A DNA stretch of 62,670 nt, counting the filler, from Thermodesulfobacteriota bacterium (GTDB lineage: Bacteria; DASVDK01), in assembly GCA_036381125.1 (NCBI GenBank). It is 6 parts of 6 records of this genome, joined end to end, with 100 filler letters (N's around TTAATTAATTAA, not from the genome) between each part and the next. Parts side by side here need not be neighbours in the genome. Positions count along the whole stretch, not along the records: positions 20,996 to 28,978 come from DASVDK010000342.1; 5 more parts are not named here. One strand, given 5' to 3'. The stretch's first letter is position 1; each line of letters starts with the position of its first letter. The position numbers and the translations under genes are program-made. The notes under the pieces are model-generated. The model ran no database searches. It was not told the origin of the DNA and saw only the letters and a program-made list of their open reading frames with translations. Shown here one piece after another: positions 2,000 to 56,708 of the stretch.

Positions 2000-3067
2000 A
2001 TGCAGCTTCGCGTCGTCGCCGCCCTCCTGCTCGCGATGGCCCTCCCGGCCGCCGCGAGCGCGTTCGAGGGCCCCGAACTCTACCCGGGCGAGCGCGCCCT
2101 CTACGAAGCCGCTTCCGAGGAGGGCATCGTCGTCTCGTTCGACACCGGGCCCACCTGGGCCAACTGGGCGGCGCAGTTCGCGGCCTTCAAGAAGCGCTAC
2201 CCGAACGTCGAGATGACCTACAACGACCTCGGCTCGGCGGCCACGGTGGTCGCGCTCGAGAAGGCGCGCAACCGGCCGCAGGCCGACACGGCGTACTACT
2301 TCGCCGCCTCGGCGGTGGACGCGGCGGCCAAGGGCGTCGTGGCGCCCTTCAAGCCGGTGAACTTCGAGAAGCTCCCCGAGGTGTTCCGGCATCCCGACGG
2401 GCAGTGGTTCACCATCCACTCGCTCACGATCGCGTTCCTCGTGAACACGAAGCTCGTGCGGAACGTCCCGCGCTCCTGGGCGGACCTCCTGAAGCCCGAG
2501 TACCGCAACTCGGTCGTCTACCTCGACCCGCGCTCGACGGGGGTCGGCCAGGTGCTCACCTTCGCGGCGGCGTACGCGAACGGCGGCGACGTGAACAACG
2601 TGAAGCCGGGGATCGACTACCTCGCCCGGCTCCACCGCGCCGGCAACGTCCTGCGCGTCGAGGGCACGACCCCCTACGCCAAGTTCGTGAAGGGGGAGAT
2701 CCCCATCTGGATCTCCTACGAGAACGACGGGCTCAAGGCGAAGTACACGGACGGCATGGGCGACGCGGTGGCGGTCGTCATCCCCTCGGAGGCGTCGGTC
2801 GCGGCGCCGTACGCGATCAGCCTCGTGAAGAACGCCCCGCACCCGAACGCGGGCAAGCTCTGGCTCAACTTCATCATGACCGACACGGGCCAGGGGATCT
2901 TCGCGCAGGGCTTCGTGCGGCCGGCCGTGTCGGGCGTGAAGCTGCCGGAGGACGTCGCGGCGAAGCTGCCGGCGGCGCCGCAGGTGCGGCCGCTCGACGT
3001 GAAGGCCGCCGCGGCGAAGAAGGCGGAGATCGACGCCGGATGGGCGAAGGCGATCCTCGGGCGGTAG
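2000..3067 (+). CDS. ABC transporter substrate-binding protein (Fe3+/thiamine/phospho-compound family)
   Basis: RBS AGGAGG; signal peptide; motifs 'PRSWADLLKPEY', 'NAPHPNAGKLWLNFI'. Confidence 0.85.
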   Translation: MQLRVVAALLLAMALPAAASAFEGPELYPGERALYEAASEEGIVVSFDTGPTWANWAAQFAAFKKRYPNVEMTYNDLGSAATVVALEKARNRPQADTAYYFAASAVDAAAKGVVAPFKPVNFEKLPEVFRHPDGQWFTIHSLTIAFLVNTKLVRNVPRSWADLLKPEYRNSVVYLDPRSTGVGQVLTFAAAYANGGDVNNVKPGIDYLARLHRAGNVLRVEGTTPYAKFVKGEIPIWISYENDGLKAKYTDGMGDAVAVVIPSEASVAAPYAISLVKNAPHPNAGKLWLNFIMTDTGQGIFAQGFVRPAVSGVKLPEDVAAKLPAAPQVRPLDVKAAAAKKAEIDAGWAKAILGR

Positions 3068-3912
3068 GGACGGAGGCGATCGGTCGCGGGCGGGCCGCCG
3101 CGCTGGCCGCGCCCGCGACCCTCCTCCTCGCCCTCTTCTTCGCGCTGCCGCTGGGCCTCCTGGTCACGGAGGCCTTCACGGGCGGCGGGGTCGCCTTCGT
3201 GCGCCTCGCGGCGGACCCGCTCGTCTGGCGGGGCCTCGTGAACAGCCTTGCCCTCGGGGCGACGGCCGCCGGGATCTCCCTCGTCGTCGGCTTCGCCGTC
3301 GCCCTGCACCTCGCGCGGCTCGACGAGCGCGTCCGGGCGGGGCTCGTGTTCTGCATCTCGCTTCCCCTCACCTTCTCGGGGCTCATCGTCGCCTACGGAT
3401 TCATCCTCGCCTTCGGCCGCGCGGGGTTCGTGACGCTGCTCCTCGCCGAGGTGGGGGTCGATCCCGGTTCGTTCGCGAGTCTCGTCTACGGCCCGGGCGG
3501 GCTCGCGGTCGCCTACACGTACTACCTCGTGCCGCGGGTCGTGCTCCTCCTCCTGCCCGTCTTCGTGAACTTCGACGAGCGCCAGCTCCTCGCCGCGGAG
3601 TCGCTCGGCGCGACCCGCCTCAGGGCGCTCGCGGACGTGCTGATGCCGCAGGTGCTCCCGTCGGCCGTGGTCGCGTTCTGCCTCACGGCCGCGGTCGCGA
3701 TCGGGGCGTACGGGACGGCGCTCGCGCTCGTCGGCACGCAGGTGAACATTCTGCCGCTCCTCCTCTACAGCAAGGTCTCGGACGCCGGAAGCGACTTCCC
3801 GTCCGCGGCGGCGCTCTCGCTCGTCCTCCTCGCGATCTGCTCGCTCGTCATGGCGGCAGGCGAGACGTTCGCGGCCCGCCGGAAGGGAGCCACCGATGCC
3901 ACTCTGGCTTGA
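3040..3912 (+). CDS. ABC transporter permease (start uncertain)
   Basis: TM helices; EAA-like 'LAAESLGA'; in operon. Confidence 0.8.
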   Translation: MGEGDPRAVGTEAIGRGRAAALAAPATLLLALFFALPLGLLVTEAFTGGGVAFVRLAADPLVWRGLVNSLALGATAAGISLVVGFAVALHLARLDERVRAGLVFCISLPLTFSGLIVAYGFILAFGRAGFVTLLLAEVGVDPGSFASLVYGPGGLAVAYTYYLVPRVVLLLLPVFVNFDERQLLAAESLGATRLRALADVLMPQVLPSAVVAFCLTAAVAIGAYGTALALVGTQVNILPLLLYSKVSDAGSDFPSAAALSLVLLAICSLVMAAGETFAARRKGATDATLA

Positions 3913-4528
3913 CCGCGCCGCCGGCCGCCTTGCGACCGAGGACGGCCGCACGTTCGACCCTGCCGCCCGCGCCTGGCGCGCCGGCGGACCCGCGCCGGCC
4001 GGCGTGCCGGTGGAGCCGGCCGAGGCGGCCCGCTGGCTCCAGCGGGAGAGCGGGCACCCCTGCCGGCTTCCGGTGGCGGTCGTGGGCCCCCGCGAGGCCA
4101 CGCCCGACCAGCGCGCCGCCGCCGAGGACCTCGGGGTCCGCCTCGCACGCCTCGGCGTGGTGGTCCTCTGCGGGGGGCGCCAGGGGGTGATGGAGGCCGT
4201 CTGCCGGGGCGCGGCGGCGGCGGGGGGCGTCAGCGTCGGCCTCCTCCCCGACGACGACACCCGGCACGCCAACCCCTACGTGACGATCCCCATCGCCACC
4301 GGCATCGGCATCGCGCGCAACGCCCTCATCGCCCGCGCCGGCCTCTGCATGGTCGCCGTGGGAGGCGGCTACGGCACGCTCGCCGAGATCGCCTTCGCCC
4401 TCCAGTTCGGCAAGCCGGTGTTCGGGCTGGCGGGCGCGCCGGACGTCCCGGGCGTCCGTCACCTGCCCGATCTGCCGGCCGCGGAGTCCGCGGTGGCCGC
4501 CCTCCTGCTCGGGCTGCCGCCGGGCTAG
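3896..4528 (+). CDS. LOG/TIGR00725-family Rossmann-fold protein with N-terminal extension
   Basis: 'CGGRQGVMEA', 'ARNALIA', 'GGGYGTLAEIA' motifs. Confidence 0.8.
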   Translation: MPLWLDRAAGRLATEDGRTFDPAARAWRAGGPAPAGVPVEPAEAARWLQRESGHPCRLPVAVVGPREATPDQRAAAEDLGVRLARLGVVVLCGGRQGVMEAVCRGAAAAGGVSVGLLPDDDTRHANPYVTIPIATGIGIARNALIARAGLCMVAVGGGYGTLAEIAFALQFGKPVFGLAGAPDVPGVRHLPDLPAAESAVAALLLGLPPG

Positions 4529-20895: not shown

Positions 20896-20995
20896 NNNNN
20901 NNNNNNNNNNNNNNNNNNNNNNNNNNNNNNNNNNNNNNNTTAATTAATTAANNNNNNNNNNNNNNNNNNNNNNNNNNNNNNNNNNNNNNNNNNNN
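20896..20995. other. Artificial contig spacer
   Basis: N-run with TTAATTAATTAA (stops in all frames). Confidence 0.99.
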
Positions 20996-20996
20996 C

Positions 20997-21191
20997 CGTC
21001 GGCTCTACGCGACCGCGCTCGACGAGAACCGGGGCGGCTTCTCGCGCACCGGCCGCATCGACCCGCGCGCCGTCGACACCGTCGTCGCGACCTACCGGAC
21101 CTCGGGCGCGATTGCGCCGTCGCAGGCCGTCGACACGACCGTCCTCTACGACAACCGCTTCGTCGACCAGGCGCTGGCCGAGGAGCGGTAG
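20997..21191 (+). CDS. 3' end of probable SsuA/NMT1-type ABC substrate-binding protein (partial)
   Basis: Frame reads 'RRLYATALDENRGGFSRTGRIDPRAVD...VLYDNRFVDQALAEER*'; C-terminal YDNRFV is typical of the family. Confidence 0.5.
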   Translation, partial: RRLYATALDENRGGFSRTGRIDPRAVDTVVATYRTSGAIAPSQAVDTTVLYDNRFVDQALAEER

Positions 21192-21211
21192 TCCCCGATC
21201 GGGAGCACGCC

Positions 21212-22600
21212 ATGGATCATCGCGTCCGGATCGCCTTCGCCACCTGCGGCCCCACGGTGAACCGCCTCGAGCCGGTGAAGGCCCGCTTCGCCAGCGTCGC
21301 CGAGATCCTCCCCTTCCCCGCCGCCAACGACGGCAGCGACGCCGACGCCCTGGTTCCCGCGCTGAGGCGCGCGGCGCCCCACGCGGTCGTCGCCTTCCCG
21401 AAGGTGGCCGAGCGGCTCCTCCGCACAGGGCTCGCGGTGCCGGTCTTCCCGATGGAGATGCCGGCCGACGTGCTGGTCGGCCGCGTGACCGAGGCGCTCG
21501 AGCGCGCCGACTCGGTTGGGGTCCTGCCGCCGGCCGGCACGATCGCCCCCTCGACCTGCCGGCTGCTCAGGCGACTCGGCGGCGCGGTCCACATCCTGCC
21601 GTACGAGAACCACGACCACCTGCGCGACCTCGTCGCCCGCTGCCGACGCATGGGGATCCGCGCGCTCGTCGGCGGCGAGAGCCTGAAGGGCATCGCCGAG
21701 CCGCAGGGGCTTCGTCCCTTCTCGCTGGCGGACGAGGCCGACGAGGCGGCCGGCGCCATGGGCCAGGCGGTGATCAGGGCCGCCTCGCAGGCCGCACCGC
21801 GTCACGCGCCCCGCGGCGAGGCGCTGGCGCGCTACGGGCTCATCCTCGAGAAGATCGCCCAGGGAGCCATCGGTCCCGACGACCTCACGCTCTGCGTCGA
21901 TGACGGCGGCCGGGTCACGGCGGCCTTCGCCTCCCCGTGGGCCACCGGCGCCGGACGCGCCCTCGCGCCCGCGCGGCCCGGCGCCCTCTCGGTCCTCGAG
22001 GCCGTGACCACCGCGGCGGCCGTGGCGACGAGCGAGCCGGGCGAGTCGGTCTCCCCGGTCGCCCTCGACCTCTACCCCCTGGCCCCCGGCGACGGCGGCG
22101 GCTACCTGGCCGTCGTCCGCAGCTCGCGCCGGCCGGTCGCCGCCCTCCCGGCCGGCCCGGCCCCGCTCGCCGCCGACCCGGCGGCAGGCGACCTGCTCGC
22201 CCGTCTCGACACCCTGATCGCCCGCCTCGACACGCTCGTCCGCGCGAGGCGCGGCCGCCACGCCCCTCGCCGCTTCCTCGCCTCGCTGCGCCGGCGCACC
22301 TTCCTGATCGACTGGAGGCGGGTCCGCTACTTCGAGCTGCGTGCGGGACTGGTGTACGCCTCGCTGGTCACGGGCGAGACCTACGCGACCAACTACACCC
22401 TGGCCGACCTCGCCGCCCGGGTCGACGGGCGCGACTTCTTCCGCATCCACCGCCACGTCCTGGTCAACCTCAACTACGTCACGGAGCTGGAGCGCTACGG
22501 GGTGAGCCAGTTCCGCGTGGTCCTCGAGGGGCCCGACACCCCCGCCTTCGTCGTCAGCCGACCCGCCTCGGCCGCCCTCCGCAAGCTCCTCAAGTACTGA
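21212..22600 (+). CDS. LytTR-domain regulator with PrpR_N-like N-terminus and degenerate PAS-like linker
   Basis: C-terminal 'TLADLAARVDGRDFFRIHRHVLVNL...VSR'; N-terminal 'AVVA..VAERL...VPVFPME...MGIRALVGG' resembles PrpR_N; no REC acidic pocket seen. Confidence 0.75.
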   Translation: MDHRVRIAFATCGPTVNRLEPVKARFASVAEILPFPAANDGSDADALVPALRRAAPHAVVAFPKVAERLLRTGLAVPVFPMEMPADVLVGRVTEALERADSVGVLPPAGTIAPSTCRLLRRLGGAVHILPYENHDHLRDLVARCRRMGIRALVGGESLKGIAEPQGLRPFSLADEADEAAGAMGQAVIRAASQAAPRHAPRGEALARYGLILEKIAQGAIGPDDLTLCVDDGGRVTAAFASPWATGAGRALAPARPGALSVLEAVTTAAAVATSEPGESVSPVALDLYPLAPGDGGGYLAVVRSSRRPVAALPAGPAPLAADPAAGDLLARLDTLIARLDTLVRARRGRHAPRRFLASLRRRTFLIDWRRVRYFELRAGLVYASLVTGETYATNYTLADLAARVDGRDFFRIHRHVLVNLNYVTELERYGVSQFRVVLEGPDTPAFVVSRPASAALRKLLKY

Positions 22601-22610
22601 CGCTACTGAC

Positions 22611-22650
22611 GCTGCGGGACCCCGCTCGAGGGGTCCCGCGGCTTCCTTCC
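22611..22650 (+). terminator. GC hairpin after the first LytTR gene
   Basis: GCTGCGGGACCCC-GCTCGA-GGGGTCCCGCGGC followed by TTCCTTCC. Confidence 0.55.
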
Positions 22651-22819
22651 GGTCTGCTCACGCTCACCTTCCGCGCTCGCGGCCGCACGCGGCGCGAGCG
22701 CCCCGTCACGTCGCGCCTTCGGCAATGTGCTTCCGATTCGTCCGCACCCCACGTCCGGATCAGGCCGACGGCATGGGGCCGAGCCCCATGAACGACCGCC
22801 CTTGCGGCCGCGCCGGATC

Positions 22820-22849
22820 CGCATCGCCGCTTCATCCGCCTGCCCCGTC
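22820..22849 (+). promoter_or_regulatory. Conserved upstream motif CGCATCG-N10-CGCCTGCCCCGTC (copy A)
   Basis: Same two blocks and spacing recur on the minus strand at 24681-24710. Confidence 0.6.
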
Positions 22850-22875
22850 CGTCAGGGCTTTGCGGTCGCGGCGTC

Positions 22876-23505
22876 ATGGGGCAGGCTGGGGTCATGGTGA
22901 ACGGCGTGGAACTCGATCGACATGCGGCGACCGGAGACCTCGTGGTCCAGGTGGGCCCCGACGGCCGGGTCGCGTGGAGCGGCGGGGGCTCGCGCCTGGC
23001 CGGCCCCGCCCGCGGGACGGCCTTCCTCGAGTGGCTCGCGACGGCGCCCCCGGTGGTGGTCGCGGTCCGGCGCGACCCGGGCGGGGGGCTGCTCCTGACC
23101 GTACGGCCCGCCGGGCCTTCCGACACGCCGTCCGGCGAGCCGGCGGCCGCCCGCCGGACAGCCGGCGTCCCGAGGCGCCTCGTCGGCTTCAAGCGGAAGC
23201 GGACCTTCCTCTTCGACCCGTCGCGCGCCCTCGCCTTCGAGCTGCGCTCCGGCCTCGTCCACGCCTCCCTCGACGACGGCGAGAGCCTCGCGACGAACTA
23301 CTCGGTGCGCGAACTCACCGCACGCCTCGCGCCGCTCGGCTTCTTCCGCGTCCACCGCGACGTGATCGTGAACCTCAGGCGGGTGAGGGAGATCGAGCGG
23401 GTCGGCCAGGGGCGGGTGCGCCTCGTCCTCGACACGCCCGACGCGCACGGCTTCACCGTGAGCCGCCCCGCCTCCGCCCGCCTGCGGCGCCTCCTCCGCT
23501 TCTGA
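22876..23505 (+). CDS. Short LytTR-domain regulator (paralog of 21212-22600)
   Basis: 'FELRSGLVHASL..GESLATNYSVREL...FFRVHRDVIVNL...VSRPASARLRRLLRF'. Confidence 0.75.
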   Translation: MGQAGVMVNGVELDRHAATGDLVVQVGPDGRVAWSGGGSRLAGPARGTAFLEWLATAPPVVVAVRRDPGGGLLLTVRPAGPSDTPSGEPAAARRTAGVPRRLVGFKRKRTFLFDPSRALAFELRSGLVHASLDDGESLATNYSVRELTARLAPLGFFRVHRDVIVNLRRVREIERVGQGRVRLVLDTPDAHGFTVSRPASARLRRLLRF

Positions 23506-23511
23506 CCGCGC

Positions 23512-24576
23512 CTACCACCCCATCGCCGCCCGGAGCCGCCGCCCGACGTCGCGGCTGAGCACCAGCTCGGTCTTGGCGGCGTCCGCAAAGAGGAGCCGGT
23601 AGCGCTGGTGGGTCCAGGGGATCAGCTCCCCGATCCGCGTGAGGTTGACCAGGTGCGACTGGTCGAGCCTGAGGAACCGGCTCGCGTCGAGCCGCCGCTC
23701 GAGCTCCGCCAGGGTCTGGTTCGTCCAGTACCGTCCGCCGTCGGCGAAGGCCGTCACGACGCCGCCGAGCGAGGAGACGTAGACGATGCTCGCCTGGGGC
23801 ACGAGGACGAAGCGCCGGCCGGTTCGGAGCGCGACCACCTCCGGCGTCCCGGCCTCGTCGGGCCGCGGGGTTCCGGCCGGGAGCGCGCGACAGGTCGCAT
23901 GACCGTGGGCCGCCTCCGCGCCGAGGTGCGCCACCTGCCGCAGGCGCGCCAGGACGGCGCGCGACAGGACCCGCTCGACCGCGTGAACGACGGCGCACCC
24001 GCCCGACAGCTCGAGGCACGACTGCGCGGCAAGGCCCATGCCGCCGGCGATCGGGACGGCGGCCGGCTCGGTCAGGACCGACGCGACGCCGGCGCGCCGC
24101 GCGACGGCGAGCTGGGAGTGGAGGTGGTCGGCCGAGAGGAACGGCAGGTAGGCGTACCGATCGGGATGCTCGAGCATCGCGGCGGCGAGCACCGGCGAGA
24201 CGGCGGCCGGACGGAGCACGACCGCACCCGGCCCCTCGGCCGCTCGCCGCGGCGACGCGAGCAGACAGGCCGGCTCGATGACCACCGGCACGACGTGCGC
24301 GGGGCCGAGCGCCGGCTCGACCCCCCGGTGGCCGGGCGGAACGACGACGGCGTCCGGCCCCTCGACCCTGAGCCGCTCGACGACGCCGGGGGTGAGGGCG
24401 CTCTCCGGCTCCTCCAGGTGCGCCTCGGGCCGCTGCGACTCCGTCTCGCAGGCGACGACGAGCAGGTCGGCCAGGCCCGTGTAGCGGCGCGCGACCTCGG
24501 CCGCCGGCCCGGTGAAGTAGCGGCACCCCGCGACGGCGAGCCGGAGCCGTCCCGGGTGCGGCTCCCCGTCGCTCAC
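23512..24576 (-). CDS. LytTR-domain regulator with divergent PrpR_N-like N-terminus
   Basis: 'TLAELERRLDASRFLRLDQSHLVNL...ELIPW...LSRDVGRRLRAAMGW'. Confidence 0.75.
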   Translation of the reverse strand: MSDGEPHPGRLRLAVAGCRYFTGPAAEVARRYTGLADLLVVACETESQRPEAHLEEPESALTPGVVERLRVEGPDAVVVPPGHRGVEPALGPAHVVPVVIEPACLLASPRRAAEGPGAVVLRPAAVSPVLAAAMLEHPDRYAYLPFLSADHLHSQLAVARRAGVASVLTEPAAVPIAGGMGLAAQSCLELSGGCAVVHAVERVLSRAVLARLRQVAHLGAEAAHGHATCRALPAGTPRPDEAGTPEVVALRTGRRFVLVPQASIVYVSSLGGVVTAFADGGRYWTNQTLAELERRLDASRFLRLDQSHLVNLTRIGELIPWTHQRYRLLFADAAKTELVLSRDVGRRLRAAMGW

Positions 24577-24680
24577 CCGACGCCCGGATCACGGCGCGGT
24601 GCGCGGGCGTCCCGCACGACGACCCGCGCCGCCTGGCTGAAACGTCGCTTGCGCCCCATCGCGCACGATACAACCACCCC

Positions 24681-24710
24681 GACGGGGCAGGCGCAGACGG
24701 TTTCGATGCG
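24681..24710 (-). promoter_or_regulatory. Conserved upstream motif CGCATCG-N10-CGCCTGCCCCGTC (copy B), followed by -10-like TATCGT
   Basis: + strand GACGGGGCAGGCG-N10-CGATGCG; ACGATA at 24665-24670. Confidence 0.6.
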
Positions 24711-24819
24711 TTGCGGAGGCCGCGAACGGGCGACGCGGACGGCCGCGGACGCGATCCGCCGGCCGACGGGCCGATTCGCCGGCGCCGGGCCGCCCGGTTC
24801 GGAAGCCCGGACCGGACGC

Positions 24820-25947
24820 TCACCACCCGAGGATCGCGCGCAGGCGGCGGCCGACGTCGCGGCTGAGCACCAGCTCGGTGTTGGCGGCGTCGTCGAGGCG
24901 CAGCTTGTAGCGCTGGTGCGTCCAGGGGATGAGCTCGACGACCCGTGCCACGTTCACCAGGCGCGAGGCGTCGAGGCGGACGAAGCGCCGCGGGTCGAGC
25001 CGCGACTCGACCTCGGCGAGCGTGCGGTCGGACCAGAAGCTGCCGCGGTCGGTGTACGCGGTCACGAGGCCGCCCCGGGAGCTGATGTAGCTGATGCTGG
25101 CCGCCGGCACGAGGACGAAGCGCCGCGCGGTCCTGAGCGCGACGACGTCCCGAACCGGGTCGGGCCGGCGACCCGCCGGGTGCGACGGCGGCCAGCCCGA
25201 CGGCGCGGCCCAGGAGCCGGGCGCGGCCGCGGGGCCGTGCGCGAGGCCGGACAGGCGGGCGAGGCTCGCCTGGGCGAGGCCGCGCTCGAGGGCGTGGACG
25301 ACGAGGCAGCGGCCGGCGCCGTCGTAGATGGACCGGGCCTCGAGCCCCCGCCGGCGCGCGAGCGCCGCCGCGGCGGGATCGGCGAGGACGGGCGCGAGCC
25401 TCGATCGCGCGACGAGGTCGAGCTGGGCATGGAGGTGCTCGGCGCCGAGGTAGGTGAGGAGGACGGCGTCCGCAGCCTCGCGCGGCCACGCGGCGACAAG
25501 CAGGCGCGGGACGGCGTCGGCCGGCAGCACGAGCGCGGGGGTCGTACCCGGCCGCCGGGCCTCGCGCAGGAGCTCGACGACGCACGACGGCGCCAGCTCG
25601 ATCCGGACGACCGGCGGCTCGGCGGGGACGGGCGCGTGAGGGGCGGGCGGCAGCAGGACGGCGTCGGCGTGCCGCATCGCCTCGGCCGCGTGCGGCGGCG
25701 CGCCGCCCGGGGCCTCGTCGACGTGGCCGTCGAGGTCGTGCGGAGCGACGTCGCAGTGGACGACCTCGAACGTCGCGAGCCCGCGGTAGCCGTCCAGAAC
25801 GGGATCGACGCTCTCGGTGAGGAGCCGGCAGCCGACGACGAGCAGGCGAAGCGCGCGCGGTCCCGGCGGCGGCGCGACCGGCATCGGCGAGCCGGCCTCG
25901 CACACCAGCGAGGCGGCGAGCGCGGCCGAGCACCGCCAGGCCCCCAT
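24820..25947 (-). CDS. LytTR-domain regulator with divergent PrpR_N-like N-terminus (paralog of 23512-24576; alternative start 25884)
   Basis: 'TLAEVESRLDPRRFVRLDASRLVNV...ELIPWTHQRY...LSRDVGRRLRAILGW'; ATG overlaps the ImmA TGA (TGATG). Confidence 0.75.
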   Translation of the reverse strand: MGAWRCSAALAASLVCEAGSPMPVAPPPGPRALRLLVVGCRLLTESVDPVLDGYRGLATFEVVHCDVAPHDLDGHVDEAPGGAPPHAAEAMRHADAVLLPPAPHAPVPAEPPVVRIELAPSCVVELLREARRPGTTPALVLPADAVPRLLVAAWPREAADAVLLTYLGAEHLHAQLDLVARSRLAPVLADPAAAALARRRGLEARSIYDGAGRCLVVHALERGLAQASLARLSGLAHGPAAAPGSWAAPSGWPPSHPAGRRPDPVRDVVALRTARRFVLVPAASISYISSRGGLVTAYTDRGSFWSDRTLAEVESRLDPRRFVRLDASRLVNVARVVELIPWTHQRYKLRLDDAANTELVLSRDVGRRLRAILGW

Positions 25948-26630
25948 CAGTCCCCCCAGAGCCTGCCCTGGCGGCCGTCGGCCGGCTCTCGCAGGCAGCC
26001 GAGCTGGCCGAGGCGGACGGCAGCGGCCTCGGGCGAGACGCCGAAGGCGCGGGCGACGCGGTCGACGAGCCGGTCCCCCTCGCGCGTCCCGGCAAAGGGC
26101 GGGCGACCGCGGACGCGGACCCGAGGGGCCGGCACGAGGAGGGCCGCGGCCAGGTAGCCGGCCTGCCACTCGAGCCAGCCGACGGGGTCCTCGAGCGTCC
26201 GGCTGTGCGCCGCCTCGATCCGCGGCGCGACGTCGGGCAGGAGCGCCGGCTCGGCGAAGCGGCGGTCCCACAGCTCCCGGTGGAGGACCACGTGGGCCAG
26301 CTCGTGAGCCAGGGTGAAGCGGAGGCGGACCTCTCGCCGTGGGTCACCGGCGAGGCGCCGCTCGACGCGGACGATCGGCGCGACCCCGGGCCGGAACTCG
26401 GTCACCGCCTCGACGCCCGGCCCGAACTCCGCCTCGAGGTCGGCGTACAGGTCGAGGTCGCCCGCGTGCGCCTCGACGAGGACGAGGAGGGCGTCGGTGT
26501 CGAGCCGGCCGGTCCCGGCCCGGCGGCGGGTCCCCTCCCTCGCGAGCGCCGCGCCGAGGGCGTCGAGTTCGGCCGCCTCGTAGAAGGGCCTGGCCGGGAA
26601 GCGGCCGGAGGGATCGTCGATCCACCTCAC
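25947..26630 (-). CDS. ImmA/IrrE-family Zn metallo-endopeptidase
   Basis: 'RLRFTLAHELAH' (HExxH), 'EWQAGYLAAALLVP', C-terminal HTH 'VARAFGVSPEAAAVRL'; GTG overlaps XRE stop. Confidence 0.88.
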   Translation of the reverse strand: MRWIDDPSGRFPARPFYEAAELDALGAALAREGTRRRAGTGRLDTDALLVLVEAHAGDLDLYADLEAEFGPGVEAVTEFRPGVAPIVRVERRLAGDPRREVRLRFTLAHELAHVVLHRELWDRRFAEPALLPDVAPRIEAAHSRTLEDPVGWLEWQAGYLAAALLVPAPRVRVRGRPPFAGTREGDRLVDRVARAFGVSPEAAAVRLGQLGCLREPADGRQGRLWGD

Positions 26631-27040
26631 GACCGGCGCTCCCGCCTCCGTCCCGGTGACGGATCGGCGGACGCGAGCAGCCGCGTCCAGTCCTCGCGGG
26701 TCCACCCGCAGGCGCGGGCGCGGCGGAAGAGACGCCCCACCGGCTCGGCCGCCTCGGGACGCTCGCGCAGGTAGTCGACGACCGGCGCCGCGCCCCGGCC
26801 GGCCGCCGCCTCGATCGACGTGAGCGACAGTCCGAGCGCGGCCGCCAGCTCCGCGGCGAGCGCCGACGACGGCCGGCGCCGATCGTGCTCGATGTCGTTG
26901 ATGTACTGTGGCGAGACGCCCCGCGGCCGGTTCCCCCCGGCCGTGAGGCGCGCGCCGAGCTCGCGCAGGCTCAGCCCCCGCGCCCGGCGTGCCGTCGACA
27001 CGAGCCGCCCGAGCGACGGCTCCCCTCGCTTGCCGCCCAT
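26627..27040 (-). CDS. XRE-family HTH regulator (ImmR-like)
   Basis: 'ARRARGLSLRELG...VSPQYINDIEHDRRRPS'. Confidence 0.88.
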   Translation of the reverse strand: MGGKRGEPSLGRLVSTARRARGLSLRELGARLTAGGNRPRGVSPQYINDIEHDRRRPSSALAAELAAALGLSLTSIEAAAGRGAAPVVDYLRERPEAAEPVGRLFRRARACGWTREDWTRLLASADPSPGRRRERRS

Positions 27041-27095
27041 GCAGGTGTACCCTCCGCCTGCGGACGAGCGTATACCTGCACGTTCGAGCAGTCAA
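27040..27095 (-). promoter_or_regulatory. sigma70 promoter TTGACT-N17-TACGCT with GGAGG RBS, overlapped by an 11-bp inverted repeat (candidate XRE operator)
   Basis: -35 27090-27095, -10 27067-27072; TGCAGGTGTAC (27040-27050) / GTATACCTGCA (27070-27080), one mismatch. Confidence 0.65.
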
Positions 27096-27973
27096 GAGGC
27101 GAGGAACTCGATCAGCCGTCTCGCGTGTCCCGGCAGCGCATCGAAGCGGCGCACGCAGATGGTCAGGCGCCGCACCGCCCACGGGTCCGTGAGCCGCACG
27201 ACCCGGATCCGCATCGACCTCCGGTACCGGCGCGCGGCCACCTCGGGGACGATCGCCACGCCGACGCCCCGCTCCGCCATCCGGCAGACGGCGTCGAAGC
27301 CACGCACGCGGACCCGCACCTTGAGCGGCCGACCGGCGCTCGCGGCCTGCGCGTCGAGGTAGGCCTGCAGCGCGCTGCCGGTGCCGAGGCCGACGACGTC
27401 GTGGTCGAGCACCTCGCGGAAGGCGCGCGGCGGCCCGGCCGCGAGCGGGTGGGCCGGCGCGGCGACGACGACCAACCGGTCCGCGCGGAAGGGGAACGTC
27501 TCGAGGCCGGTGAGGTCCACGGAATCGGCCGCGACGCCGGCGTCGGCGATGCCCTCGGCGACGGCCCGCGCGATCTCCCGGCTCGGCCGCTCCTCGAGCT
27601 GGACGTCGACGTCGGGATGGGCGGCGAGGTAGCGGGCCAGCGCGCCGGGCAGGAACTCGGCCACCGCGGCGGTGTTGGCGAGGAGGCGGACCCGGCCCTT
27701 CAGGCCGCGCGCGTACTCGCCGATCTCGCCGCGCATCCGCTCGACCTGCTCGAGGAGCGTCCGCGCATGGCGCGCCAGCGCCTGGCCGGCCGGCGTCGTC
27801 CGCACGCCGCGGGACCCCCGCTCGAGCAGCGCGACGCCGAGCGACGCCTCCATGCCGCGGATGCGCGCGCTCGCCGCGGCCAGCGACAGGCCGGCTCGCC
27901 CGGCGCCGTGCGTGATGCTGCCGGCCTCGGTCACCTCGAGGAACAGGCGCAGGTCGGTCAGGTCTATGGACAT
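27092..27973 (-). CDS. LysR-family transcriptional regulator
   Basis: 'DLTDLRLF..V.EAGSIT.GA...LSLAAASARIRGME'. Confidence 0.92.
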   Translation of the reverse strand: MSIDLTDLRLFLEVTEAGSITHGAGRAGLSLAAASARIRGMEASLGVALLERGSRGVRTTPAGQALARHARTLLEQVERMRGEIGEYARGLKGRVRLLANTAAVAEFLPGALARYLAAHPDVDVQLEERPSREIARAVAEGIADAGVAADSVDLTGLETFPFRADRLVVVAAPAHPLAAGPPRAFREVLDHDVVGLGTGSALQAYLDAQAASAGRPLKVRVRVRGFDAVCRMAERGVGVAIVPEVAARRYRRSMRIRVVRLTDPWAVRRLTICVRRFDALPGHARRLIEFLAS

Positions 27974-27999
27974 CGGCCGCTCGCTCGGGTCACTCGCCC

Positions 28000-28020
28000 G
28001 CCTTCGTCCCGGCCGAAGGC
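28000..28020. promoter_or_regulatory. LysR recognition box (T-N11-A palindrome)
   Basis: GCCTTCG-N7-CGAAGGC between divergent lysR and tauE-like genes. Confidence 0.7.
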
Positions 28021-28075
28021 AGGCTCGACGACTGCCGCATTGTCCTTCGCCGCGGAGGCGGGCAGCATCGGGGGC

Positions 28076-28819
28076 ATGTCCGACGCGCTCCCACTCCTGG
28101 TCGCCGTCGCCTCCACGTTCCTCGTCGCCGGGGTCGTGAAGGGCGTGATCGGGCTCGGGCTGCCCACGGTGGCGATCGGCCTCCTCGGCCTGTACATGCC
28201 GCCGGCCGAGGCGGCCTCGCTCCTCGTCGCGCCGTCGCTCGTGACCAACCTCTGGCAGCTCGCCGCGCGTCCCGTCGCGCCGCTCCTCGGCCGCCTCTGG
28301 TCGATGATGCTCGGGATCTGTCTCGGGACGTGGGCCGGCTCCGGGCTCCTGGCCACGGACGAAAGCGGCCGCGCCGCCACGGCGCTCGGCGTCGTCCTGG
28401 CGCTCTACGCCGTAGCCGGGCTCGCGTCGGTGCGTCCCCGCGTCCCGCCACGCGCGGAGCCCTGGCTCTCGCCCCTGGTCGGCGCCGCCACGGGTCTCGT
28501 GACCGCGGCGACAGGGGTCTTCGTGGTCCCGGCCGTCCCGTACCTCGAGGCGCTCGGGCTGCAGAAGGAGGACCTGGTGCAGGCGCTCGGCCTCTCGTTC
28601 ACGGTCTCGACCCTCGCGCTGGCCGTCGGACTCGCCCGCGACGGGGTGCTCGACGCCTCGCTGGCCGGCGGCTCGGTCCTCGCGCTCGCGCCCGCCCTGG
28701 CCGGGATGTCGCTCGGCCGGCAGCTCAGGGCCCGGGCGAACCCGCGCGTCTTCCGGCTCTGCTTCTTCCTCGGCCTCCTGGTCCTCGGGGCCCACCTCGC
28801 CCTGCGGCGCGCGGTCTGA
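28076..28819 (+). CDS. TauE/SafE-family (sulfite exporter-like) membrane protein
   Basis: 'AGVVKGVIGLGLPT', about 8 TM helices. Confidence 0.85.
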   Translation: MSDALPLLVAVASTFLVAGVVKGVIGLGLPTVAIGLLGLYMPPAEAASLLVAPSLVTNLWQLAARPVAPLLGRLWSMMLGICLGTWAGSGLLATDESGRAATALGVVLALYAVAGLASVRPRVPPRAEPWLSPLVGAATGLVTAATGVFVVPAVPYLEALGLQKEDLVQALGLSFTVSTLALAVGLARDGVLDASLAGGSVLALAPALAGMSLGRQLRARANPRVFRLCFFLGLLVLGAHLALRRAV

Positions 28820-28978
28820 AGCGCGGCGCGTCAGTCCACGACGCCCGCCTGGAGGAGGGCTCGCACCTCCGAGACGGTGCAGCAGGCGACGGCGCGCCGC
28901 AAAAGCTCGGCGCACCGGTCGCGCCTGAGCCCGCCGAGGGCGCGCTTCACGCGCGGGATCGCCGCGGCCGCCATGGAC

Positions 28979-29078
28979 NNNNNNNNNNNNNNNNNNNNNN
29001 NNNNNNNNNNNNNNNNNNNNNNTTAATTAATTAANNNNNNNNNNNNNNNNNNNNNNNNNNNNNNNNNNNNNNNNNNNN
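28979..29078. other. Artificial contig spacer
   Basis: N-run with TTAATTAATTAA. Confidence 0.99.
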
Positions 29079-35216: not shown

Positions 35217-35316
35217 NNNNNNNNNNNNNNNNNNNNNNNNNNNNNNNNNNNNNNNNNNNNTTAATTAATTAANNNNNNNNNNNNNNNNNNNNNNNNNNNN
35301 NNNNNNNNNNNNNNNN
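35217..35316. other. Artificial contig spacer
   Basis: N-run with TTAATTAATTAA. Confidence 0.99.
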
Positions 35317-42494: not shown

Positions 42495-42594
42495 NNNNNN
42501 NNNNNNNNNNNNNNNNNNNNNNNNNNNNNNNNNNNNNNTTAATTAATTAANNNNNNNNNNNNNNNNNNNNNNNNNNNNNNNNNNNNNNNNNNNN
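42495..42594. other. Artificial contig spacer
   Basis: N-run with TTAATTAATTAA. Confidence 0.99.
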
Positions 42595-56608: not shown

Positions 56609-56708
56609 NNNNNNNNNNNNNNNNNNNNNNNNNNNNNNNNNNNNNNNNNNNNTTAATTAATTAANNNNNNNNNNNNNNNNNNNNNNNNNNNNNNNNNNNN
56701 NNNNNNNN
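56609..56708. other. Artificial contig spacer
   Basis: N-run with TTAATTAATTAA. Confidence 0.99.

Follow-up and report, generated by a model that had tools for sequence, protein, structure and literature searches.

A CapH/CapP-like XRE-ImmA pair overlapping a LytTR regulator gene in Thermodesulfobacteriota: a possible protease switch with a transcription factor as cargo

Protease switches of the CapH/CapP-like type, in which a repressor with an XRE-family helix-turn-helix (HTH) domain is encoded beside a zinc metallopeptidase of the M78 (ImmA/IrrE) family, have so far been tied to defense systems, mobile elements and DNA repair. Here we describe a pair of this type in a 62,670-base stretch of Thermodesulfobacteriota DNA (the window), where xre and immA are followed on the same strand by lyt4 and lyt3, two genes whose products end in LytTR domains, and where two further LytTR genes, lyt1 and lyt2, approach from the opposite strand. 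The reading that we favor, with a probability of roughly 0.4, is that xre, immA and lyt4 form one operon, possibly extending into lyt3, in which the cargo of a CapH/CapP-like head is a one-component regulator of LytTR type, beside an unrelated lyt1-lyt2 operon. The window consists of at least six contigs joined end to end and is not one replicon, so that adjacency across this artificial join implies no linkage; all of the lyt, immA and xre genes lie on a single contig of 7,983 bp (positions 20996-28978), a length that the protein collection also lists for the window's own Lyt4 and Lyt1.

Among related switches, ImmR and ImmA of ICEBs1 comprise a repressor and a small M78 peptidase co-transcribed with a third gene, int, and IrrE and DdrO are encoded by unlinked genes that control a regulon. 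CapH and CapP are a CBASS-associated HTH repressor and an M78 peptidase activated by DNA damage. According to the accessible part of 10.1101/2022.04.27.489752, CapP has a peptidase-HTH-GAF organization and cuts CapH at F82|R83; activation of CapP by single-stranded DNA (ssDNA) held in an inter-domain groove is described in the available text of 10.64898/2026.05.16.725639. The XRE repressor DdrO is inactivated when a COG2856 peptidase cuts its C-terminal dimerization domain, as set out in the accessible portions of PMC12828697 and PMC6868357.

The gene immA (25947-26630, minus strand) starts with GTG and encodes a 227-amino acid (aa) protein identified as an M78 zinc metallopeptidase (Pfam Peptidase_M78, PF06114, E 7.3e-10; 39.1 bits against a cut-off of 22), and xre (26627-27040, minus strand) encodes a 137-aa XRE/HTH_3 repressor (Pfam HTH_3, E 3.1e-9). 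Both partners match PADLOC profiles, ImmA that of capP (E 7.6e-14, residues 96-210 against profile positions 60-153 of 242) and XRE that of capH (E 4.3e-7). The HELAH motif of the peptidase is intact, and H109, E110, H113, H117 and E154 are invariant in 31 homologs, results that bear out the original prediction of an XRE/ImmA-IrrE-type pair. As in CapH/CapP, an XRE-type HTH gene precedes an M78 gene, and the C-terminal tail of the repressor holds an F-R dipeptide (F105-R106; tail residues 105-109 at 26715-26729) that is conserved in the tails of plasmid-encoded HTH partners. The dipeptide resembles the F82|R83 cleavage site of CapH, as given in the accessible text of 10.1101/2022.04.27.489752. 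The peptidase differs from CapP in carrying an N-terminal extension of about 95 aa, conserved across the alignment of 31 homologs, and in its C-terminus: the PDB structure of CapP (7t5t) matches ImmA over the peptidase core only (positions 90-197 of 291), and since just 17 residues follow the matched core, ImmA is without the GAF-sized C-terminal domain of CapP and IrrE. With DdrO/IrrE of Deinococcus, the locus shares the combination of an XRE repressor and a COG2856 peptidase reported in the available portions of the papers cited above; it differs in that IrrE carries a GAF domain, and the match of ImmA to the IrrE profile is weak (E 0.051) and confined to the peptidase core.

A tblastn search of annotated plasmids with ImmA returned 10 records, seven of them with at least 80% coverage at 34-38% identity (one from Nitrosospira and six near-identical ones from Rhizobium), and a Paraburkholderia record covered 78% of ImmA at 38.7% identity. 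Three distinct plasmid loci (L002-L004) were examined. The gene order is HTH - ImmA - DUF3892 in the Nitrosospira plasmid, HTH - ImmA - DUF2188 - multiubiquitin - E2 - ThiF - DUF6527 in the Rhizobium plasmid, and HTH - ImmA - two hypothetical genes - JAB/MPN - hypothetical gene in the Paraburkholderia plasmid. The HTH proteins of the plasmid pairs share 38% and 34% identity with XRE, as well as ISPQYLNDIEHDRR, and the cargo lies on the same strand directly downstream of immA, after 101-168 nt, in all three loci. DUF3892, DUF2188 and ubiquitin-like operons are among the cargo classes of CapH/CapP-like pairs listed in the accessible part of section 12 of 10.1101/2022.04.27.489752, and the closest annotated plasmid relatives of the pair described here head cargo of these classes; so XRE and ImmA appear, by sequence, to be members of a known and widely spread family of CapH/CapP-like regulatory heads. 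The available text of the same paper places the published pair divergent from its operon, on the opposite strand, whereas the present pair and those of L002-L004 are co-directional with the genes that follow them.

A pair of this make-up might also act on itself alone, as a toxin-antitoxin-like or autoregulatory module without further output. NCBIfam matches to antitoxin-type HTH models, and to a repressor/antitoxin model of spr1629 type, are consistent with such a module, at weak scores far below cut-offs, and XRE/zinc-metalloprotease pairs have been treated as toxin-antitoxin systems elsewhere (for example in the accessible part of PMC10538038); however, the capP and capH profile matches are stronger and the homologous plasmid pairs head cargo operons, which makes a module without output improbable. 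With the ImmR/ImmA pairs of ICEBs1 and phage phi105, the locus shares a repressor, an M78 peptidase that is small and consists of a single domain, and an accompanying third gene. It differs from them in that Pfam searches of the 8-kb contig identified no gene for an integrase, an excisionase or any other mobile-element function, and in that a tblastn search of a phage collection with ImmA gave two records, neither of which reached 80% coverage, hence no full-length homolog.

In the position held by cargo genes on the plasmids, the contig carries lyt4 (24820-25947, minus strand), which encodes a protein of 375 aa. The stop codon of xre and the GTG of immA overlap in GTGA (26627-26630), and the TGA of immA and the ATG of lyt4 overlap in TGATG (25945-25949), with one base shared by the two genes; both links were read in the sequence as first described. 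Homologs of ImmA begin MRWIDDPSGRF or MKWVDDPSGRF and those of Lyt4 begin MGGWRY or MGTWRR, and because the homologs begin at the same residues, the start codons of ImmA and Lyt4 are supported. A scan of the contig for terminator-like sites found none, and the RNA fold after the lyt4 stop codon is no better than those of shuffled sequences (z -0.37). Given the gene adjacency and the homology of both partners, lyt4 would by analogy with the three plasmid loci sit in the cargo position of a CapH/CapP-like pair, with the difference that the cargo here is a transcription factor whose gene overlaps immA. Farther downstream, lyt3 (23512-24576, minus strand; 354 aa) lies beyond a 243-bp gap (24577-24819) in which no terminator was detected, and it may be transcribed from its own promoter or by read-through across the gap. 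Wiring of XRE-ImmA to lyt4, and perhaps to lyt3, is plausible.

The leader of xre occupies a 51-bp gap behind the same-strand gene lysR and contains two features of possible regulatory significance. The first, found by eye, is a promoter-like TTGACT-17-TACGCT sequence (27067-27095, minus strand), in which TTGACT (27095-27090) agrees with the consensus at 5/6 positions, TACGCT (27072-27067) agrees at 3/6, and the -35-like hexamer overlaps the stop codon of lysR. It is a plausible promoter-like element for xre, and the description of it as a clean sigma70 promoter could not be maintained. The second is an inverted repeat, GCAGGTATAC-19 nt-GTACACCTGC (27041-27079, minus strand), which takes in the -10-like hexamer and reaches right up to the xre ATG. 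GCAGGTRTAC has just two exact matches in the window, namely the arms of this repeat; with up to one mismatch there are 9 matches against 1.76 expected, the other seven lying off this contig. Folded as RNA, the repeat reaches -28.3 kcal/mol (z -4.1), and it may be an XRE operator, a hairpin at the 3' end of lysR, or an RNA structure that masks the ribosome-binding site (RBS). An operator-like repeat is present in the xre leader only. The original prediction had taken a set of LytTR regulators, all four of them, as the output of the switch; of this, lyt4 (perhaps with lyt3) in the cargo position stands, and the remainder is not supported, as lyt3 begins 243 bp past lyt4, the operator-like repeat is restricted to xre, and lyt1 and lyt2 belong to an opposite-strand operon with a substrate-binding protein (SBP) gene.

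The four LytTR genes form two paralog pairs that converge at 23505/23512, an arrangement that had been recognized from the start: lyt1 (21212-22600, plus strand; 462 aa) with lyt2 (22876-23505, plus strand; 209 aa), and lyt3 with lyt4. Pfam LytTR (PF04397) was detected in all four products at 51.6-63.4 bits against a cut-off of 22.6 (E 1.8e-16, 1.1e-13, 2.4e-17 and 7.3e-17 for Lyt1 to Lyt4, respectively). Lyt3 and Lyt4 are full-length paralogs with 47.6% identity over 357 aa, Lyt2 is a shortened paralog of Lyt1 that is 37.4% identical to residues 183-462 of the latter, and the N-terminus of Lyt1 is about 26-31% identical to those of Lyt3 and Lyt4. Response_reg (Pfam) was found in none of the four proteins, and the NCBIfam LytR/BtsR models matched the LytTR part only, far below their cut-offs. 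Lyt1 scores 27.9 bits against PrpR_N (PF06506), below the cut-off of 29.1, and its ortholog in a related locus (L001, described below) scores 29.2 bits, just over it. A profile of nine Lyt1-family members matches the N-domain of Escherichia coli PrpR (2pju) with an E of 6.2e-7 over positions 6-195. The sensors of Lyt3 and Lyt4 match PrpR_N by sequence at a sub-threshold level (E 0.027), and an hhalign comparison of the Lyt3/4 family (A1) with the Lyt1 family (A2) is colinear with a probability of 99.1%.

AlphaFold2 models of Lyt4 and Lyt1 were built on the family alignments. The N-domain of the Lyt4 model (33-236) has pLDDT values mostly of 77-96 with one 10-residue block at 59, and the Lyt1 model has a mean pLDDT of 73.6. 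Foldseek ranked 2pju first for both models (Lyt4, E 8.8e-7, TMt 0.67-0.73; Lyt1, E 4.4e-9, TMt 0.67), followed by 2q5c and the LytTR domain 3d6w, which reaches a TMt of 0.87 with the Lyt1 model. A PrpR_N fold is supported for the N-terminal domains of Lyt1, Lyt3 and Lyt4 by these models and by the profile matches. The four Lyt proteins are accordingly one-component regulators and not response regulators, and in these three the sensor is a PrpR_N domain of periplasmic-binding-protein-like type. This agrees with the original proposal of ligand-sensor-type N-termini in place of receiver (REC) domains. A receiver-domain reading of the Lyt proteins is contradicted by the Pfam, fold and profile results. 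It could be kept only in the form of atypical response regulators, all four with degenerate receivers and served by a kinase encoded elsewhere; one homolog (P0015) is indeed named "LytR/AlgR family response regulator" in one source, and an ESM Atlas search with the N-domain of Lyt4 gave receiver-like clusters at 0.79, below lead level, in a search that was uninformative overall (scores of at most 0.79, TM of at most 0.41). With Response_reg at 0/4, top folds that are PrpR N-domains and not CheY-like, and sequence-level homology to 2pju, we give degenerate receivers hardly any credence. No kinase is encoded on the contig, all of whose genes were assigned, as had been noted before; the contig is only 7,983 bp long, so the absence of a kinase there says little.

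In domain order, Lyt4 comprises the PrpR_N-fold sensor (33-236), a linker predicted to be disordered in the model (237-267) and LytTR (273-373), and Lyt3 a PrpR_N-like sensor followed by LytTR. Lyt1 comprises a PrpR_N sensor (about 1-197), a PAS-like middle region (about 203-302), a long helix (323-347) and LytTR (362-460), and Lyt2 consists of the PAS-like region and LytTR without PrpR_N. The middle region shared by Lyt1 and Lyt2 shows an alpha/beta pattern in the Lyt1 model, and ESM Atlas places Lyt1 near PAS-LytTR clusters (score 0.86); since Pfam finds no PAS domain in Lyt1 or Lyt2 even at E <=10, the term PAS-like denotes a lead only. No invariant His, Met or Cys occurs in this region of the Lyt1 family. 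Membership of the Lyt proteins in a defense system was considered and rejected, PADLOC assigning none of the four to any family. A tblastn search of plasmids with Lyt4 gave 11 records, none with at least 80% coverage and all limited to the LytTR domain. A search of the intergenic regions for direct repeats resembling LytTR-type sites found only GC-rich repeats indistinguishable from chance.

Ligand sites in PrpR_N-type folds usually lie after strands or at the starts of helices. In a 19-sequence alignment of the Lyt3/4 family (A1), in which Lyt3 falls in the second clade, the sensor residues C40, C65, C122, C214, H75, H218 and H237 (Lyt4 numbering) are invariant, and in the Lyt4 model C40 and C65 are located just after strands and C122 at a helix start. 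This Cys4/His3 signature distinguishes the PrpR-type sensor of Lyt3 and Lyt4 and is absent from the Lyt1 family (nine full-length sequences). It may constitute a metal, iron-sulfur (Fe-S) or redox site. The original prediction had named a metabolite as the second input of the system, which was a guess; the conserved cysteines and histidines would point rather to a metal, a cluster or redox state. The family to which Lyt3 and Lyt4 belong is very rare: a word-indexed protein search with Lyt4 found 22 proteins at E <=0.001, 19 of which cover at least 90% of Lyt4 (its own sequence included) and three of which are ordinary receiver-LytTR regulators matching the last quarter of Lyt4 only. When a profile of the Lyt3 and Lyt4 sensors alone was compared with 1.84 billion representatives, five proteins were found at E <=0.001 and three at E <=1e-10, one of these three being a 154-aa fragment.

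Compared with PrpR, the sigma54-dependent activator of propionate catabolism, the Lyt proteins other than Lyt2 share the fold of the N-terminal sensor and sequence homology to 2pju, and Lyt1 may in addition share with PrpR-type activators a PAS-like region after the sensor, a lead from the ESM Atlas entries. They differ in having LytTR in place of the AAA+ sigma54 module and Fis-type HTH, since Pfam detected neither Sigma54_activat nor the Fis-type domain in any of the four. One-component regulators that join a sensor to a C-terminal LytTR without a receiver are known, among them RcoM, with a heme-PAS domain (PMC4257681), and CoxC, with an MHYT domain (PMC11347149), as described in the accessible parts of these papers; the sensor domains there are other than those of the Lyt proteins, and Lyt1 and Lyt2 have no Pfam-detectable PAS. 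Most members of the LytTR family are not response regulators according to the available text of PMC6193735, which also covers the LRS of HdrRM/BrsRM type, whose LytTR regulators likewise have no receiver. In the LRS, each regulator is a small protein made up of LytTR alone and is co-transcribed with its membrane inhibitor (DUF3021/DUF2154 type), whereas the Lyt proteins are 209-462 aa long and carry extra domains, with a large cytoplasmic sensor in each; none of the genes on the 7,983-bp contig encodes such a membrane partner, and the contig is short enough to leave a distant one possible. A literature search, with most subscription journals outside its reach, found no paper joining LytTR with ImmA, IrrE or COG2856 and no description of the PrpR_N-LytTR domain combination.

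A genome scan for related loci gave 36 pattern matches and one confirmed locus, L001, a 4,043-bp contig from a metagenome-assembled genome of a near-identical Thermodesulfobacteriota relative. It keeps the lyt3-lyt2-lyt1-SBP synteny, with identities of 36/37 for the Lyt3 tail, 195/209 for Lyt2, 89% for Lyt1 and 60/64 for the SBP, and adds a full SBP gene and a divergent rpiR-type regulator gene (2421-3473, 3675-4043). Footprinting of the window against L001 was useless, the sequences being about 89% identical. As a proxy for co-location in other genomes, we compared the longest-contig values listed for the homolog clusters of the Lyt3/4, ImmA and Lyt1 families. ImmA orthologs of at least 60% identity comprise P0023-P0030, and one of them, P0025 (73% identity), is listed with a longest contig of 20,073, as is P0087. 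The latter is a 401-aa database protein in which fragments of the SBP and of Lyt1 are combined with sequence read out of frame; it represents the SBP-lyt1 locus in a broken or misassembled form, and the coincidence hints at a conserved neighborhood in one relative. The Lyt4-clade protein P0006 and the Lyt3-clade protein P0016 likewise share a value (5,263). For P0011, to which the window's own Lyt3 is about 95% identical, the contig listed with the cluster measures 2,531 bp, so the proxy gives false negatives and its negative results are weak.

Several observations weigh against the operon reading. L001, the one locus confirmed, ends inside lyt3 and is therefore silent on conservation of xre-immA-lyt4, and the ImmA and Lyt3/4 homologs have no longest-contig value in common. 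The cargo in the plasmid loci stands 101-168 nt from immA and is of defense type, with no transcription factor in any of the three. ImmA does not have the architecture of the CapP/IrrE subtype (peptidase, HTH-like, GAF), and since it is without a GAF-sized domain the ssDNA mechanism of CapP is not simply transferable to it. A consensus promoter scan of the contig found no sites, the inverted repeat is open to the two non-operator readings given above, and the LytTR part of the Lyt4 model is of low confidence.

The main rival is incidental juxtaposition, by which an orphan XRE-ImmA head that lost its defense cargo landed upstream of lyt4 without a designed link, for example by deletion; co-transcription, if any, would then be incidental, and the lyt genes would answer only to their own ligands. 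Relatives of the pair carry DUF3892, DUF2188 or ubiquitin-like cargo and never LytTR (3/3 loci), as such a history would have it, and elsewhere the Lyt3/4, Lyt1 and ImmA families occur on differing longest contigs, the two coincidences above excepted, with Lyt3-clade members on contigs of 18.8, 10.2 and 193 kb for which no ImmA homolog of the same value is listed. However, the one-base overlap and the lack of a terminator imply that the xre promoter drives lyt4 regardless of history, the longest-contig proxy is unreliable, as the comparison of Lyt3 with P0011 demonstrates, and the value shared by P0025 and P0087 hints that the neighborhood is kept in a relative; we consider incidental juxtaposition somewhat unlikely.

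If xre, immA and lyt4 do form one operon, the steps that we infer, from repression and cleavage through signal and cofactor to every target, would run as follows. An XRE dimer would repress its own promoter, with the 10-bp inverted repeat that covers both the -10 region and the RBS as candidate operator. A stress signal of some kind would activate the M78 peptidase, which would cut the C-terminal tail of XRE, F105|R106 being the candidate site, and with the operon derepressed Lyt4 would accumulate. DNA binding by Lyt4 (and Lyt3) would then depend on the state of the PrpR_N-fold sensor in the same protein, where the invariant Cys4/His3 residues suggest a site for a metal, an Fe-S cluster or redox chemistry. 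Lyt1, with its PrpR_N-PAS-like-LytTR arrangement, and the shortened paralog Lyt2 would be separate one-component regulators outside the switch. The peptidase could conceivably cut a LytTR protein, for example in the disordered linker of Lyt4, instead of or besides XRE. The translational coupling of immA and lyt4 and the predicted disorder of residues 237-267 would suit such a target; set against them are the cognate XRE partners that known M78 regulators cut under the repressor-cleavage model, as described in the available text of 10.1101/2022.04.27.489752, and an N-terminal extension of ImmA that is conserved in homologs with other cargo, and we hold cleavage of Lyt4 to be very improbable.

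Beyond the operon itself, it is a doubtful further step that a CapH/CapP-like switch has been co-opted to control production of a PrpR_N-LytTR factor with a Cys4/His3 sensor (for Fe-S, a metal or redox state) in a two-input cascade. If it has, stress would release the regulator and the state of its cofactor or ligand would decide its action, possibly as a Lyt4/Lyt3 heterodimer, and the PrpR_N-Cys4 sensor would represent a cofactor-bearing sensor domain of a new class. Were the wiring real, XRE/M78 switches would be general-purpose heads that can be placed atop ordinary transcription factors too, and stress signaling could be layered over ligand sensing. Judged from its sequence, the locus appears to combine known parts in a new way, with their wiring as a proposal; its source is an uncultured organism known from short contigs, which limits the evidence and its immediate usefulness.

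On the opposite strand, convergent to lyt4-lyt3, lyt1 and lyt2 are in an operon with the gene for an NMT1/THI5-like periplasmic SBP, the 3' end of which (20997-21191, plus strand) is cut by the contig edge. The reading frame of the fragment ends ...DNRFVDQALAEER*, 20 nt before lyt1, a spacing that is the same in L001, and its product is 60/64 identical to a 350-aa protein of L001 that matches Pfam NMT1 (E 3e-25). Given their strand and this operon, wiring of XRE-ImmA to lyt1 and lyt2 is not supported. Directly after the lyt1 stop codon, a perfect 13-bp GC hairpin (22611-22642, plus strand) folds as RNA at -36 kcal/mol (z -4.18), with 1 of 200 shuffled sequences folding equally well; it has no U-tract, is kept in L001 and may serve in termination or in stabilizing the RNA.

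Upstream of xre on the same strand, lysR (27092-27973, minus strand) encodes a 293-aa LysR-family regulator (Pfam HTH_1, E 2e-15; LysR_substrate, E 6.5e-43). It is probably paired with the divergent gene tauE (28076-28819, plus strand), which encodes a 247-aa protein of the tauE/safE-like sulfite-exporter family (Pfam TauE, E 1.9e-23). The SBP/rpiR side of the locus, taken with the lysR-tauE flank, hints at a sulfonate or sulfur setting. The SBP fragment, lyt1 to lyt4, immA, xre, lysR and tauE account for the entire gene content of the contig, along which the G+C content is 70-78%. Rfam gave no matches on the contig at E <=1, and no paralogs were found elsewhere in the window. The contigs of the window are separated by five spacers of the form N44 + 12-nt linker + N44 (20896-20995, 28979-29078, 35217-35316, 42495-42594 and 56609-56708); 11 nt of one linker are legible and were read as overlapping stop codons. 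By eye, translations of open reading frames on the other contigs contain glgX/treY/treZ-like and ftsA/ftsQ/murC-like genes (at about 14.8-20.8 kb and 29.3-32.9 kb).

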